DNA of 64,000 nt from assembly GCA_002698665.1 (NCBI GenBank), contig NZZP01000012.1:689-64688 (forward strand), given 5' to 3'. The first letter of the stretch is position 1; each line of letters opens with the position of its first letter. Under the pieces are notes generated by a model, which saw only the letters and a program-made list of their open reading frames with translations, did no database searches and was not told the DNA's origin. Positions 10,453 through 31,657 of the stretch are shown here, piece after piece. Source of the stretch: Gammaproteobacteria bacterium. GTDB taxonomy: Bacteria; Pseudomonadota; Gammaproteobacteria; GCA-002705445; GCA-002716945. The translations under genes and the position numbers were made by a program.

Positions 10453-10554
10453 TTTCGATGTTCACCATGGAGCAAAAACCACATCCTTTATGGCTATCAG
10501 TAGTATAGAGGAGTATTAGGTTTAGTTCAATTTATATACTAGAAATTATTAGAT

Positions 10555-12911: not shown

Positions 12912-14786
12912 TTAGTTATTATATTTTTTTATATAAATGCGAAGTAGAGATATTATTGCAGGTGTTATACCTGAAATTCTAGCCGCTTGGCCAAGCGTTG
13001 TTGGTGAAACCTTCGAGAGCTTCTCTTTTGCCTCGTTAGACAAAGCTTTTAAGTCATTATAATCTAAACTATCAGGAATCTTGATTTGGTGAGTTTTATA
13101 CATATTGCCTATCTCTAAATCTTGTCTTTTCAAATAACCCTTATACCTCTCTTGAATTGCTACCAAGTGACCTATATCTGAATTACTCGTCTGCCCAAAT
13201 GTGTCTAAAGATTGAAGATCTGAATACTGGATATCAGACATTTTTAATAGACTTTTCATAGATTGAACTTTTTTAATTTTAATCTTGAACTTGTCTTCTA
13301 TCAGCCCAGAAGTTCTAGTTTGCGGTTTAATCGTAATGGCACTTAACCTATCTGATTCCATTTCAATTTTTTTTAATTTATTTCTGAATAAGGCATATCT
13401 TTCTTTACAGACCACTCCAAGCTTATACCCTATCTCTGTTAATCTAATGTCTGCATTATCCTCTCGTAGTCTGAGCCTATGTTCAGCCCTACTAGTAAAC
13501 ATTCTATATGGTTCATTTACGCCATGTGTAATCAGATCGTCTATTAACACCCCAATATATGCATCTTTTCTCTCAGGACACCATTTATCTTTTCCTAAAC
13601 ATGCCATGGCTGAGTTAATCCCAGCTATAATACCCTGCGCTGCCGCTTCTTCATATCCAGTCGTACCATTTATCTGGCCAGCAAAAAAAAGATTTTTGAT
13701 CTTCTTGGTTTCTAAAAATTTACTCAACCCACGAGGGTCAAAATAACTATATTCAATAGCATATCCTGGCTTGGCAATCTTACATTTTTCCAGCCCTGGA
13801 ATTGTTTGCAAAAACTCTAGCTGTACATCCTCTGGCAGACATGTAGATAGCCCATTAGGATAAATTATGTTGTTGTCAGTAGTTTCAGGCTCTAAGAAAA
13901 TCTGGTGGGAAGCCTTATGAGAAAATCTCTCTACTTTATCTTCTATAGATGGACAATACCTGGGGCCTACAGCTTCTATTGATCCATTGAATAGAGGGGA
14001 TATATTTTGTGAGCTCTTGATAATTTCATGTGTCACTAAATTGGTATGTGTTATATAGCAGGGTATTGGTAGAATCAAGCGTGGGCTTTTACCATAGTGG
14101 TCATTGTAATACGACATGTATGGACGCTTGCTGTCACTATCTTGTCTTTCCAATCTTTTAAAATTAATTGATTCTTGATAAATTCTCGGTGGAGTGCCCG
14201 TTTTCAGCCTACCTATTGGGAAATTTAATCCTCTGAAAAAAAGTTCTAATTTTTTTGATGCCTTATCTCCTGCTCGTCCGGAACTAAATGACTTTTCTCC
14301 CAAAAATATTCTTCCATCCAAAAAGGTCCCTGTAGTGAGCACGACAGCTCGGCTTTCAATTATCTCTCCATCAGACATAATTACACCTTTAAGAGTGTCA
14401 GACTCTAAGTGAATACCCGAAACTGTACCTTCTAGAATATTGATGTTTGGCGTAGATGATATTTGTTCTAACATTTCTTGTTTATATGTATTGCGACATG
14501 TTTGAATCCTGGTTGCTTGAACTGCTGGACCTTTGCGAGCATTTAATTTTCTGCATTGAAGGGCAGAGCTGTCAGCAACTTTACACATAAGGCCATCTAA
14601 CGCATCAACCTCTCTTGCTAAATGAGATTTGCCTATACCGCCAATTGCAGGATTGCAACTCATCTGGCCAATATCTCCTTTTTTCATCGTAACCAATGCT
14701 ACTCTAGACCCAAGCCTAGCTGCGGCATGTGCAGATTCGCAACCAGCATGACCACCACCTATCACTATTACATCATAATTGCTCAT
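12912..14786 (-). CDS. mnmG: tRNA uridine 5-carboxymethylaminomethyl modification enzyme MnmG (GidA)
   Basis: 624 aa with N-terminal FAD motif [12 protein letters not shown]. Confidence 0.95.
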
Positions 14787-14787
14787 T

Positions 14788-16125
14788 TCATTTACCTATG
14801 CAAAAATCTGAGAAAATTTTGTCAAGTAAATCTTCATCGATATTTCCTCCAATCAGACTAGTTAAAGATTGATGAGCCAGCTTAAGCTCCTCAGATACTA
14901 GTTCTAATTGTTGATTATTATTGTAATCATTACACATGTAAAGATGTTGAAGCGCTGAATTTAATAAATTCAGATGGCGTGCTCTAGCTGTTCCAACGTT
15001 ATCACCGTCAGGCATAGCTTGTTTTGACAAGTGATTTTTTAACAGGTCTATGCCTCTTTTGTTCTGTGCTGATAAGTAAAATGTTTTGATGCCATCCTCC
15101 TGAACAACAGTTTCTTGCTTTCCCGTCTTGTCAATTTTATTACGAATAATCCAATAATCTGAAATATTATTCTTTTGAAGAATATCTTTATCGCCTTGTG
15201 TAAGTGCTGTTGCATCATCTACAACGTATAGCACAAAGGTTGATTCTTGAATTGATTTCAATGATATCTTTATGCCTTCCAGTTCTAATGGGTCGCTTGT
15301 ATCTGCTATTCCGGCAGTGTCAATTATTTTCATTACAGTTTGATTAATCATCACATCGCTATGGATTGCGTCGCGTGTTGTGCCTGATATAGAGGAAACT
15401 ATGGATCGATGTTCCCCAAGAAGGGCATTTGCTATAGAAGACTTGCCAACATTTGGTTTGCCTATAATCACGATAGTATCTTGTTCGTTGAGTTTTATGC
15501 CATTTGTAGCATTTTGAATCAAATTCCTTAGCTCATCGATAATTTTGTCAAATGTTGTTTTGTAAATCAGAAAAGATTTTTCTGGGATATCGTCTTCTGG
15601 AAAATTTATTGAAGCTTCGACAGCAGCTCTAATCTCTAGAACAGCATTTAGTATGTTTTTTATTTGTTGTGAAAAATTACCATGCAAAGACATCATTGCT
15701 GCTTTAGTTGCTTTGATGCTTGAAGCATTTATTAAATCAGCGACTGCTTCAGCCTGAGTCAGGTCAATTTTATTGTTAAGGTAAGCTCGTTCAGTAAATT
15801 CACCTGGACCAGACTGTCTGGCTAATTTCCGGCAGATTATTGATAAAATATAATTTAGAATCACAGGATTTCCGTGAGTATGAATTTCTAACATGTCTTC
15901 TCCAGTAAATGATGATGGATTTTTATAAAATATGGCAATAACATCGTCAATTTTTTTATTATTGTCATCTTTCACTGAACAGTGAGTTGCAAACCTTGGG
16001 GTAAGATTCTTTTTTATAATTTGGTTAATTATCAGAGTCGTATTAGGCCCAGAAACTCTTAGCATGCCAACTGCAGATTTACCAAATGGTGTTGATATGG
16101 ATACAATTGTGTCTACAGCTGTCAT
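14788..16125 (-). CDS. mnmE: tRNA modification GTPase MnmE (TrmE)
   Basis: 445 aa with G-domain GKPNVGKSS and C-terminal CIGK. Confidence 0.95.
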
Positions 16126-18273: not shown

Positions 18274-18408
18274 TTAGGGGCACAGAACAGCTCTGCCTTT
18301 GGCGCGACGAGCGCTCAGAACCGCACGGCCTGCTACTGTGCTCATTCTAGATCTAAAACCGTGTTTTCTTTTACGTTTTAGGTTGCTTGGCTGGAATGTT
18401 CTTTTCAT
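18274..18408 (-). CDS. rpmH: 50S ribosomal protein L34
   Basis: Hand translation of the minus strand gives [44 protein letters not shown] (44 aa), a canonical L34 sequence. It is too short for the ORF track. Confidence 0.95.
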
Positions 18409-18509
18409 AATATTGTTGTCCGACTAGTATACTGCTAATTATATATTTCTTTGTCAATATATAATTTTATTTTTTTTTGTGAGATAGTAGATTCTCAACC
18501 ACAATTATT
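18409..18509. promoter_or_regulatory. divergent rpmH / dnaA promoter region
   Basis: 100-bp AT-rich spacer between divergent rpmH and dnaA. It contains TATAAT at 18460-18465 and a T9 run, with only weak DnaA-box-like sequence (TCAACCACA). Promoter elements are not mapped precisely. Confidence 0.3.
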
Positions 18510-19823
18510 ATGAACGAAACGACACTTTGGAACAAATGTTTAGAAGCGCTAGGGAGCAGGCTCTCTGACAAACAAATGAGAACTTGGCTACACCCCCTAG
18601 AAGTAACCAGGGAAAGCAACACTTTAAAAGTTGTTGCTCCAAACAAATTCATAATGGAAGCCATACAGAATGACTATATTACGATGATAGAGGATGCCGT
18701 GATGGTTTCGAGTGAAAATGAGGTTTCTAAGGTGAAACTTTCTTTACCAAAGCCATTAGAAACAAAGGTCTCTACTTCGTCTGTCGTGCAGTTACAACCC
18801 GTTAAACAATCTCTTAATAAAGATTTGTGTTTTGAAAACTTTATTGAAGGTAAATCAAACCAATTAGCTAAAGCAGCATGTAAGAATGTTGTTAATGAAC
18901 TCGGGCAGTATAACCCTCTTTATATTTATGGCGGCGTAGGATTAGGCAAAACACATCTTCTTCATTCTATAGGTAATGAAATCATAGCAAAAAATAAGAA
19001 CCGGCGTGTTGTGTATTTGCATTCAGAAAAGTTTGTTCAAGACATGGTCACTGCCCTGAGGCAGCATAAAATAGAAGAGTTCAAGTCATTTTACAGATCA
19101 GTAGATGCTTTGCTATTAGATGATGTTCAGTTTTTTGCCAATAAGGAAAGATCCCAAGAAGAATTTTTTCATACATTCAATACGTTATTTGAATATAAAA
19201 AACAAGTCGTCTTAACATCGGATAAATATCCAAAGGAGATAACAGGGTTAGAGGAAAGAATAAAGTCTCGGTTAGTTTGGGGTATGAATGTAACTATAGA
19301 TCCTCCAGATCTAGAAACAAGGATGGCGATATTACACAACAAAGCAGAGTTGGCAGGTCAGAACATATCAGATGAGGTTGCCTTCTTCTTAGCGAAGAAT
19401 GTGTATTCTAATGTAAGAGAACTAGAGGGGTCATTGCGAAGAGTTCTAGCGACAGCTCATTTTAAAAGAGAACAAGTTACGCTGGAGTTTGTTAAAGAAA
19501 CACTAAGGGATCTAATTAACATGCAAGACAGACTCATGACAATTGAGCAAATCCAAAAAACGGTGGCAGCGTACTACAAGATTAGAGTAAGCGACTTGCT
19601 ATCGTCAAAAAGAGACAGGAAAATTGCATACCCAAGACACATAGCTATGGCTTTGAGCAAAGAACTTACAAATCACAGTCTGCCAAGCATAGGAGATGCA
19701 TTTGGAGGTAGGGACCATACAACAGTATTACATGCGTGTAAAAAAATAAAAGGAATGATGGGTAAATCATCCAACACAGACCAAGATTACAAAAACCTAT
19801 TGCATACTCTTAACAATATGTGA
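18510..19823 (+). CDS. dnaA: chromosomal replication initiator DnaA
   Basis: 437 aa with AAA+ Walker A GGVGLGKTHLL and a C-terminal DNA-binding domain. Confidence 0.97.
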   Translation: MNETTLWNKCLEALGSRLSDKQMRTWLHPLEVTRESNTLKVVAPNKFIMEAIQNDYITMIEDAVMVSSENEVSKVKLSLPKPLETKVSTSSVVQLQPVKQSLNKDLCFENFIEGKSNQLAKAACKNVVNELGQYNPLYIYGGVGLGKTHLLHSIGNEIIAKNKNRRVVYLHSEKFVQDMVTALRQHKIEEFKSFYRSVDALLLDDVQFFANKERSQEEFFHTFNTLFEYKKQVVLTSDKYPKEITGLEERIKSRLVWGMNVTIDPPDLETRMAILHNKAELAGQNISDEVAFFLAKNVYSNVRELEGSLRRVLATAHFKREQVTLEFVKETLRDLINMQDRLMTIEQIQKTVAAYYKIRVSDLLSSKRDRKIAYPRHIAMALSKELTNHSLPSIGDAFGGRDHTTVLHACKKIKGMMGKSSNTDQDYKNLLHTLNNM

Positions 19824-19829
19824 ATAAAG

Positions 19830-19873
19830 TGTGGACTTATGTAGCCTAGGATTTAGTCCACAAGTTATCAACA
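19830..19873. promoter_or_regulatory. DnaA-box-like cluster / hairpin in dnaA-dnaN spacer
   Basis: TTATCAACA (19865-19873) has 1 mismatch to TTATCCACA. TAGTCCACA (19854-19862) has 2 mismatches. A 7-bp inverted repeat GTGGACT (19831-37) / AGTCCAC (19855-61) flanks a 17-nt loop. Confidence 0.4.
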
Positions 19874-19991
19874 GCAAGCCTACAACACCCAAAGCCCGTA
19901 ACCAAGCTACGCACATGATGGAATGAGACTACCACAAACCCAAAACAAAATTTTGACGCCTTTAATAATAAAAATAATATATACTCATAAT

Positions 19992-21106
19992 ATGATTATA
20001 AAGTTTAATAAAGAAAAACTGGTAGAACCATTAAAGAACGTAGTAGGTGTTTCAGAAAAGAAACAAACAATGCCTATTCTTGGTAACGTTTTATTGAGGT
20101 CGTTGGGTGGAGGTAGGGTTTTATTGGTTGCGAGTGACCTTGAAGTAGAAATATCGGCCGACATACAACTTGGAGAAGATGTTGAACTAAATCACACCGT
20201 TCCAGCCAAAAAATTATTAGACATTCTTAGATCTCTCCCTGGAAGCGGTGATGTCACCATGGATTTCTCTGACTCAAAAGTAACCGTTAAATCAGGTAAA
20301 AGCAGGTTCACATTAGCAACACTTGATGGGCAAGACTTTCCATACACCGAAATTAAGGAATCGACCACAACACCAATAGAAATTAGTACTTTAGAAGAAA
20401 TGATCAACCAAACATCTTTTTCTATGGCGGTCCAAGATGCTAGGCATTTTTTAAATGGTTTATTTGTAGAAATGACGCCAGACAAAATAACCGCAGTTGC
20501 GACTGATGGCCACAGGCTTGCGCTATGCACGTCTGCACTTACTAAGGGGCCCAGCGAATCAATAAGCTGTATTATTCCCAGGAAGTGTATTACTGAATTA
20601 AGAAAGATTTTAGGCGGAGTTGACAGGAATAAGCTGAAGTTAGCGGACGTTAGTGTTAGTAATAAAGAAATTCTATTCAACATAGATAATTTTCTTGTTA
20701 AAAGCAAACTTATTGAGGGTAATTACCCAGATTACAAAAAAGTCTTCCCGGACTCACTACCCCATAAGCTAAATACAGACAAGAATGAGTTTAAAGCTGG
20801 TCTACAGAGAATGGCAATTCTGTCTAACGATCAGTTCAAAGGTGTAAAGCTATCGCTTGACTCTACTAGCTTAAAACTCACTACTAATAATCCGTCTCAA
20901 GAAGAAGGGGAAGACAGCATATCTTGCCAATATGATGGTGATAATTTTGATGTTGGGTTCAACCTCACATATCTCCTTGAGGTCATTGATGCTATCAAAT
21001 CTGACAACCTAGAGATTCAGCTTAACAACTCAGATTCAGGCTGCCTCATAACCTCGAATAATTCTGGCACGGACAGCAAGTACATCATTATGCCGATGCG
21101 TGTGTA

Positions 21107-21107
<1 letters not shown>
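19992..21107 (+). CDS. dnaN: DNA polymerase III beta sliding clamp
   Basis: Start trimmed from the track's upstream ATG (19923) to the Met of MIIKFNKEKLVEPL..MPILGNVLL, which aligns with the E. coli DnaN N-terminus MKFTVERE...LPILGN. Confidence 0.94.
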
Positions 21108-31456: not shown

Positions 31457-31544
31457 AAGCTAGTAGACTATAGATATTATGACTATAATGTTACATATGC
31501 TACACGTCACAGACCATTATCACAACAGATTATATCTAAGTATT

Positions 31545-31649
31545 ATGCTCGTTGTATTATGTTTGTTCATATCTTCATGCGGCAACAAAGGCGCATTAAC
31601 TTTACCAGCAGAACAACAACAGATAACGGACCAATCGAATAATAATTAA
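31545..31649 (+). CDS. lptM: small lipoprotein, LptM/LppL-like (YifL family)
   Basis: Hand-translated 34-aa ORF MLVVLCLFISSCGNKGALTLPAEQQQITDQSNNN*. It has a lipobox ISSC and a CG.KG.L.LP motif, immediately upstream of lysA-dapF-xerC as in Pseudomonas and E. coli. Too short for the ORF track. Confidence 0.55.
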   Translation: MLVVLCLFISSCGNKGALTLPAEQQQITDQSNNN

Positions 31650-31657
31650 AGCGTACC

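Follow-up and report, generated by a model that had tools for sequence, protein, structure and literature searches.

We lean towards reading the spacer between dnaA and dnaN of an uncultured marine gammaproteobacterium as a miniaturised dnaA-dnaN oriC which overlaps the start of dnaN and would represent a shrunken, AT-shifted form of the Xanthomonas-type origin. An earlier note on this DNA had proposed either an oriC or a DnaA-controlled dnaN promoter. The layout of the spacer, its phased array of DnaA-box-like sites, their fixed spacing, the computed ease of melting and the lack of rival boxes in the window (i.e., the whole stretch of DNA analysed, 64 kb in length) favour the origin, without settling the choice between the two. 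Confidence in the origin is limited because no good DnaA box lies by the AT-rich block that would be unwound, strand composition gives no clear skew, the invariance of this block is not special to it and the block likely has a promoter role.

Genomic context of the dnaA-dnaN spacer

The DnaA protein encoded in the window is identical to MAR77608.1, is also found on contigs from Tara and other marine metagenomes, and carries the DNA-binding signature RDHTTVLHA, as read from its sequence. In NCBI MAG records, close DnaA homologues of this clade are labelled Pelagibacterales or Acidimicrobiaceae, labels which are probably binning errors. The minus strand carries, in this order, the atp operon, parB, parA, rsmG, mnmG, mnmE, yidC, yidD, rnpA and rpmH, and rpmH is followed on the plus strand by dnaA (18510-19823), dnaN (19992-21107), recF and gyrB. 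Since the alignment of dnaN to its protein profile starts at 19992, the dnaA-dnaN spacer spans 19824-19991, i.e., 168 bp. A longer dnaN reading frame, starting from the ATG at 19923, was rejected as uncorroborated, being contradicted both by the profile alignment and by gene calls of 369-372 aa in relatives; some public dnaN calls (L082, L084, L085 and L086) carry a 23-codon extension (394 aa) from this ATG, corresponding to 19923-19991.

The genome is very compact, with most gaps between genes shorter than 25 bp. Five internal intergenic gaps exceed 100 bp in the 64 kb, and the one between dnaA and dnaN is the second longest. The longest (31457-31657, 201 bp, 34% GC) lies between divergent genes, and neither DnaA-box-like 9-mers nor an Rfam match were found in it. 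As the earlier note had stated, mnmG (12912-14786) is abutted by mnmE (14788-16125), and the spacer between rpmH and dnaA is short and devoid of good DnaA boxes. This spacer measures 101 bp, and its sole box-like 9-mer, TCAACCACA, has two mismatches and no conservation. The mnmG and rpmH origin positions are closed. No comparable DnaA boxes were found in the other intergenic regions of the 64-kb window, and the conserved block from atp to gyrB shows no further candidate origin.

Strand composition is uninformative on this point. GC and AT skews, computed over the 64 kb in sliding windows, at 4-fold sites and by codon position, gave conflicting signals, and the genes left of dnaA all lie on one strand. 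At the three codon positions, the coding-strand GC skew of these genes matches that of the plus-strand genes on the right. The sign of the symmetric GC skew is opposite to the usual leading-strand G excess, and the AT skew disagrees.

The window was compared with ten further lineages (DnaA 73-77% identical), using a gapped alignment (A3) and an ungapped one anchored on the AT-rich block. At 4-fold degenerate sites, identity between the window and one relative is 21-38%, i.e., these sites are saturated. In all 11 lineages, the dnaA-dnaN spacer measures 168-177 bp; the rpmH-dnaA gap of the clade is 89-120 bp.

Two other spacers of the clade are strongly conserved. In the rpmH-dnaA spacer (18422-18489), nine lineages with saturated synonymous sites share an almost unchanged block of about 65 nt, GACTAGTATACTGCWAATTATATATTTCTTTGTCAATATATAATTTTAnTTTTTTTTRTGAGAT, and the spacer includes an identical run of 33 nt. 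No conserved DnaA boxes were found in this block, which presumably holds the divergent rpmH and dnaA promoters and seems conserved beyond the apparent need of a promoter pair. Four lineages (L091, L096, L097 and L098) carry a 10-nt deletion (positions ~2900-2925, window 18406-18435) which places TATACT 7 nt before the rpmH ATG and suggests a leaderless rpmH mRNA in them; in the window, 17 of the 70 genes have a recognisable Shine-Dalgarno sequence. Three independent public contigs (L089, L099 and L101) break off within the rpmH-dnaA spacer, at 88-102 bp before dnaA, which may reflect a recurrent assembly break, due to population variation or a change in coverage, or a coincidence. Similarly, in the atpI-parB spacer (10453-10554; L102, 1842-2010), about 95 nt are about 90% identical between lineages; on the minus strand, a clear promoter-like TTGAAC-17-TATACT lies upstream of the atp operon and is followed by a conserved leader. 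This spacer gave no Rfam match.

DnaA boxes, linker and AT-rich block

The elements of the spacer and its borders are as follows, with mismatches counted against TTATCCACA.

18510-19823, plus strand: dnaA coding sequence, 437 aa, left border of the spacer (NCBIfam TIGR00362, E 1e-163)
19819-19827, minus strand: box 1, reverse TTATTCACA, overlapping the dnaA stop codon, 1 mismatch
19830-19838, minus strand: box 2, reverse AAGTCCACA, left arm of the 8-bp repeat, 11 bp from box 1, 3 mismatches
19854-19862, plus strand: box 3, forward TAGTCCACA, containing the right arm of the repeat (19855-19862), 2 mismatches
19865-19873, plus strand: box 4, forward TTATCAACA, 11 bp from box 3, 1 mismatch
19874-19962, plus strand: linker of fixed length (varying by at most 1 nt in 11 lineages), A/C-rich top strand, otherwise unconserved
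19876-19884, 19887-19895, 19898-19906 and 19909-19917, plus strand: putative slots 5-8, strongly degenerate and box-like, in 11-bp phase
19963-19983, plus strand: AT block TAATAATAAAAATAATATATA, 21 nt, candidate unwinding element with TAN repeats and -10-like hexamers, identical in 11 of 11 lineages
19992-21107, plus strand: dnaN coding sequence, 371 aa (NCBIfam TIGR00663, residue 1 aligned with profile position 1)

The two forward 9-mers of the earlier note, boxes 3 and 4, are present as described and separated by 2 nt. The perfect inverted repeat reported after the dnaA stop also exists, with its 17-nt loop, and is 8 bp long instead of the 7 bp given previously (TGTGGACT, 19830-19837, and AGTCCACA, 19855-19862). 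The CCTAGG motif in the loop is not conserved across lineages. The left arm of the repeat also reads as a reverse box-like 9-mer (box 2), and a better reverse box (box 1), which matches TTWTNCACA perfectly, lies over the dnaA stop codon; both minus-strand sites were absent from the earlier note. No box in the window is perfect, and three lineages lack any box within 1 mismatch.

Evaluated in 60-bp stretches, the box cluster has the highest weighted box score of the 64 kb (7.5, the next best being 6.0). In a single sequence, the cluster is not significant: a score of 7.5 was reached somewhere in 14 of 100 first-order Markov simulations of the window, and 9-mers with at most three mismatches occur about 31 times per kb. 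It becomes convincing because the positions of the boxes are conserved across the 11 lineages. At each of the four positions, a box-like 9-mer (at most three mismatches) is found in 9-10 of the 11 lineages, with differing sequences. For box 1, such a reverse box lies within a few nucleotides of the dnaA stop in 10 of 11 lineages, and a counterpart near the dnaA stop was also found in several of the distant gammaproteobacteria read; the position of box 2 is likewise occupied by a reverse box in 10 of 11 lineages. Box 3 has a mean match of 6.27 of 9 over the 11 lineages, versus a background of 2.61, with an invariant terminal ACA, while the mean match of box 4 across lineages is 5.91 of 9. The resulting layout consists of two reverse boxes at or just past the dnaA stop followed, about 15-25 nt further on, by two forward boxes, the members of each pair being 11 bp apart.

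The distance from the boxes to the AT block is also strictly kept. From the start of box 4 to the block, it is 98 bp in eight of the nine lineages having box 4 and 97 bp in L088; from the start of box 3, it is 109 bp (108 in L088), across an intervening sequence which has diverged. The earlier note had considered the whole spacer as compositionally unusual. This holds for its central 82 nt, which are A+C-rich with 44% GC, and not for the spacer overall, whose GC content (36%) is near that of the window. Pooled over the linker, from a point about 9 nt past box 4 up to the AT block, the composition is 42% A, 24% C, 14% G and 19% T, versus 32% A, 18% C, 16% G and 35% T in the window, and the top strand is A/C-rich in every lineage. 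Neither a conserved IHF site nor a 3-nt periodicity of A was found in the linker.

What the linker does carry is an 11-bp periodicity. Conserved A columns at -81, -70, -59 and -48 fall on box position 7 and prolong the phase set by boxes 3 and 4. Among the 44 instances of slots 5-8, 93% have A at position 7 and 96% have A or C at position 6, the corresponding values for boxes 3 and 4 being 95% and 96%. The coincidence of conserved columns with box position 7 has a hypergeometric p of 7e-4, or about 0.008 when corrected for 11 phases, in a test applied after the pattern had been spotted. The profile of the mean match to TTATCCACA peaks at -109 and -98 and shows smaller in-phase peaks at -87, -65 and -54.

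The AT-rich run which the earlier note had described at the end of the spacer is present and corresponds to the AT block, a sequence unique in the window at up to three mismatches. According to nearest-neighbour energies, 19961-20011 is the least stable 51-mer duplex of the 64 kb in terms of computed stability, and the 31-mer starting at 19963 ranks third. The box cluster with the top score in the window is about 90 bp away from this 51-mer. Read in triplets, the block is TAA TAA TAA AAA TAA TAT ATA. The dnaN gene starts 8 nt after it and is transcribed away from the boxes, as in the flanking-gene criterion for oriC; its first 8 nt, ATGATTAT, are invariant in 11 of 11 lineages.

A consensus R1-type DnaA box located about two helical turns from the unwinding element has been stated to be mandatory for oriC (10.1101/2025.08.05.668638). 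No such R1-type box was found near the candidate unwinding element in the window, which does possess two other elements considered in that work, an AT-rich unwinding element (computed) and a DnaA-box array (weak to moderate matches). In the window, the 30 bp preceding the AT block contain no 9-mer with at most two mismatches. An AT-shifted 9-mer does abut the block (TTTGACGCC in the window, WTWNCAAAA in relatives; mean of 5.0 of 9 matches), and it was not counted as a box since AT-rich DNA easily matches the six A/T positions of TTATCCACA. According to the search rule for the basal unwinding system termed BUS, a DnaA box with at most two mismatches lies 0-16 bp from at least three NAN triplets (PMC8287927). 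Our own implementation of this rule returned no match in the window; at the AT block, the two sequences which pass, L092 and L093, belong to the same lineage and do so solely with TTATCAAAA. Periodic-A triplets do lie next to AT-rich DNA, as in BUS, but in DNA this AT-rich they constitute weak evidence.

Comparison with known origins

An origin between dnaA and dnaN is the common bacterial arrangement, with precedent in gammaproteobacteria, and this kind of origin is already known. In the part of PMC8453159 which cites Yen et al. (2002), the Xanthomonas oriC is reported between these two genes. For comparison, 68 distant gammaproteobacterial loci were taken among the DnaA matches listed in species genomes (identity of at most about 53% over the full protein). 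Among these listed matches, the length of the dnaA-dnaN gap is bimodal. The short-gap class (<90 bp; 38 of the 68 loci among the matches listed) includes Enterobacterales, Vibrio, Shewanella and Pseudomonas; in 37 of these 38 listed loci, rpmH and dnaA are separated by 405 bp or more, and none of the 38 has a box within 1 mismatch downstream of dnaA. The long-gap class (184-291 bp; 29 of the 68, again among the matches listed) includes Lysobacterales, Chromatiaceae, Wenzhouxiangella, Steroidobacteraceae and several MAGs; among these listed loci, the rpmH-dnaA gap is 148-390 bp in 25 of 29, at least one box within 1 mismatch occurs in the dnaA-dnaN spacer in 26 of 29, and 11 of 29 pass the BUS rule. 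The present clade, whose gaps measure 89-120 bp upstream of dnaA and 168-177 bp downstream, belongs with the long-gap class.

The Xanthomonas-type oriC and the long spacers of Lysobacterales, Chromatiaceae, Wenzhouxiangella and related MAGs thus occupy the same genomic position as the spacer of the window, with an rpmH-dnaA gap which is mostly short. Eighteen long spacers were read for their layout. Several of them share with the window a reverse box located at the dnaA stop or close to it, frequently accompanied by a second one 11 bp further along, then a forward pair at 11-bp phase and, before dnaN, an AT-rich stretch with TAN repeats. Further on in the same long spacers, a forward consensus box and a short GC cluster precede TAN/TAC repeats and AT-rich DNA ahead of dnaN. 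One very AT-rich long spacer (L052) ends with TAATAATAATAAATATATAATATAT-ATG, much like the AT block of the window. Compared to the long spacers (184-291 bp), those of the present clade are shorter (168-177 bp), their boxes are weak and AT-shifted (e.g., TTATCAACA and TTATTAACA), the consensus forward box with its GC cluster before the repeats is missing or decayed to WTWNCAAAA, and the AT block runs almost into the dnaN ATG.

The dnaA-dnaN origin of Bacillus subtilis, incC, offers a second precedent. Its BUS, composed of DnaA-boxes 6 and 7, DnaA-trios and an AT-rich element (PMC6669920, PMC8287927), lies between dnaA and dnaN as does the spacer of the window, and both share the order boxes, periodic-A repeats, AT-rich DNA and dnaN. 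In the window, unlike the B. subtilis rule, which calls for a box with at most two mismatches within 0-16 bp of NAN triplets, 89 bp separate the block from the nearest good box. In B. subtilis incC, a contribution through looping has been reported for distal boxes at a distance of about 100 bp (PMC6669920).

In E. coli, oriC is located at mnmG-mioC and spans 245 bp, whereas the spacer of the window, at dnaA-dnaN, spans about 170 bp. The E. coli oriC comprises an unwinding element, R1, an IHF site and two oppositely oriented arrays of weak sites spaced by 2 bp, a layout described in part in 10.1101/2025.08.05.668638. Both regions have same-direction, 11-bp-phased sites towards the unwinding element, opposite sites at the far end and a strict spacing; the window differs by the absence of a conserved IHF consensus and of 13-mer repeats. 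The DnaA-box promoters and modulators of E. coli (the dnaA promoter, datA and DARS) resemble the window by their small box cluster, with some boxes inverted, next to a replication gene. These elements are not known to have an unwinding-prone block at a fixed distance or six phased sites.

Alternative readings, possible mechanism and significance

The most serious alternative, which we regard as a real if clearly lesser possibility, is a spacer which serves for regulation alone. The AT block would then be the promoter and start region of dnaN, possibly producing a leaderless or very short-leader mRNA, and the boxes would tune dnaN or titrate and modulate DnaA, perhaps as a relic of an ancestral origin, the working origin being located outside the window. 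In all lineages, a TATAAT hexamer, replaced by TATACT in the window, precedes the dnaN ATG by 6-8 nt, and the upstream sequence inspected contains no Shine-Dalgarno sequence; the AT block therefore probably also carries the promoter and start region of dnaN, perhaps giving a leaderless mRNA. A promoter scan returned TTGACG-16-TAATAT at 19953-19980 (score of 9 of 12; 12 such sites in 2 kb versus 6.2 expected), and the hexamer at the -35 position, read from the sequences, is -35-like in most lineages. In E. coli, dnaN has its own promoters. Moreover, since the promoter spacers at rpmH-dnaA and upstream of the atp operon are similarly conserved, conservation of a promoter could by itself account for the invariance of the AT block. 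The failure of formal origin rules on the box next to the AT block and the lack of an origin signal in the skew also fit a purely regulatory role. Yet a promoter needs about 60 bp, whereas 168-177 bp have been retained in a genome that has hardly any DNA to spare. Six same-direction phased sites and two inverted ones, held at a near-fixed spacing over about 100 bp, look more like a DnaA-assembly region than an operator. In addition, among the matches listed, lineages with their origin elsewhere have a spacer below 90 bp with no boxes within 1 mismatch, and the block from atp to gyrB offers no other visible candidate.

The earlier note had also considered an attenuator, and an action at the RNA level, i.e., a terminator or attenuator hairpin after dnaA and a structured leader controlling dnaN, would account for an 8-bp inverted repeat located directly after the dnaA stop, whose symmetry, with co-changes from G:C to T:A, persists in 75% of cells across the lineages. 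Both arms, however, are DnaA-box 9-mers, the co-change corresponds to a C-to-A box variant common to both boxes of a lineage, and the 11-nt phasing makes sense for duplex DNA and not for RNA. Searches of the spacer revealed no terminator-like site, no T run after the stem, no Rfam match and no tRNA, and its folding is less stable than that of shuffled sequences (z = +1.2). The repeat is thus better read as two head-to-head DnaA boxes, and we consider the RNA-level explanation highly improbable. Even less credit is given to the idea that the box-like 9-mers are functionless chance matches in an AT-rich genome. While the simulations and the density of such 9-mers reported above would allow it for one sequence, it is at odds with the same four positions being box-like in 9-10 of 11 lineages despite diverged surroundings, and with the consensus boxes found at comparable positions in several of the distant gammaproteobacteria read.

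If the spacer is a dnaA-dnaN origin, as we tend to believe, its elements suggest the following mechanism. DnaA would bind boxes 3 and 4, which are moderately good and are flanked on the other side by the reverse boxes 1 and 2. ATP-DnaA might then spread along the same face of the helix over the weak 11-bp-phased sites, or loop across the linker, towards the AT block. As the least stable duplex of the region by computation, this block would open, and its TAN repeats could serve as single-strand contacts for DnaA in a manner similar to DnaA-trios. With the promoter and start region of dnaN probably located in the same block, a single sequence would serve both initiation and the expression of this gene.

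A bolder version can be formulated, which we put forward as a speculation with rather poor odds. The spacer would be a self-contained origin of about 170 bp, among the smallest known, with no high-affinity box at the unwinding element. Two moderate boxes would nucleate a filament over eight or nine cryptic 11-bp-phased sites, along a 98-bp stretch of a length fixed to within 1 bp, into an invariant TAN block which would also be the promoter and start of a leaderless dnaN mRNA, thereby coupling origin firing to the expression of the clamp. The features that would make this origin a variant of its kind are its small size, the lost box by the unwinding element, the strictly kept spacing together with phased cryptic sites, and an overlap with the start of dnaN.

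Were the spacer only a control region of dnaN, it would be an ordinary regulatory spacer. As an origin, it would fix the start of replication for an abundant group of uncultured marine gammaproteobacteria, which would serve coverage-based estimates of growth rate and the orientation of assemblies. Such an origin would further reveal how much shrinkage and decay can occur in a streamlined, AT-rich genome without loss of a strict geometry, and would provide a natural test case for the guidance of unwinding by weak, phased DnaA sites.
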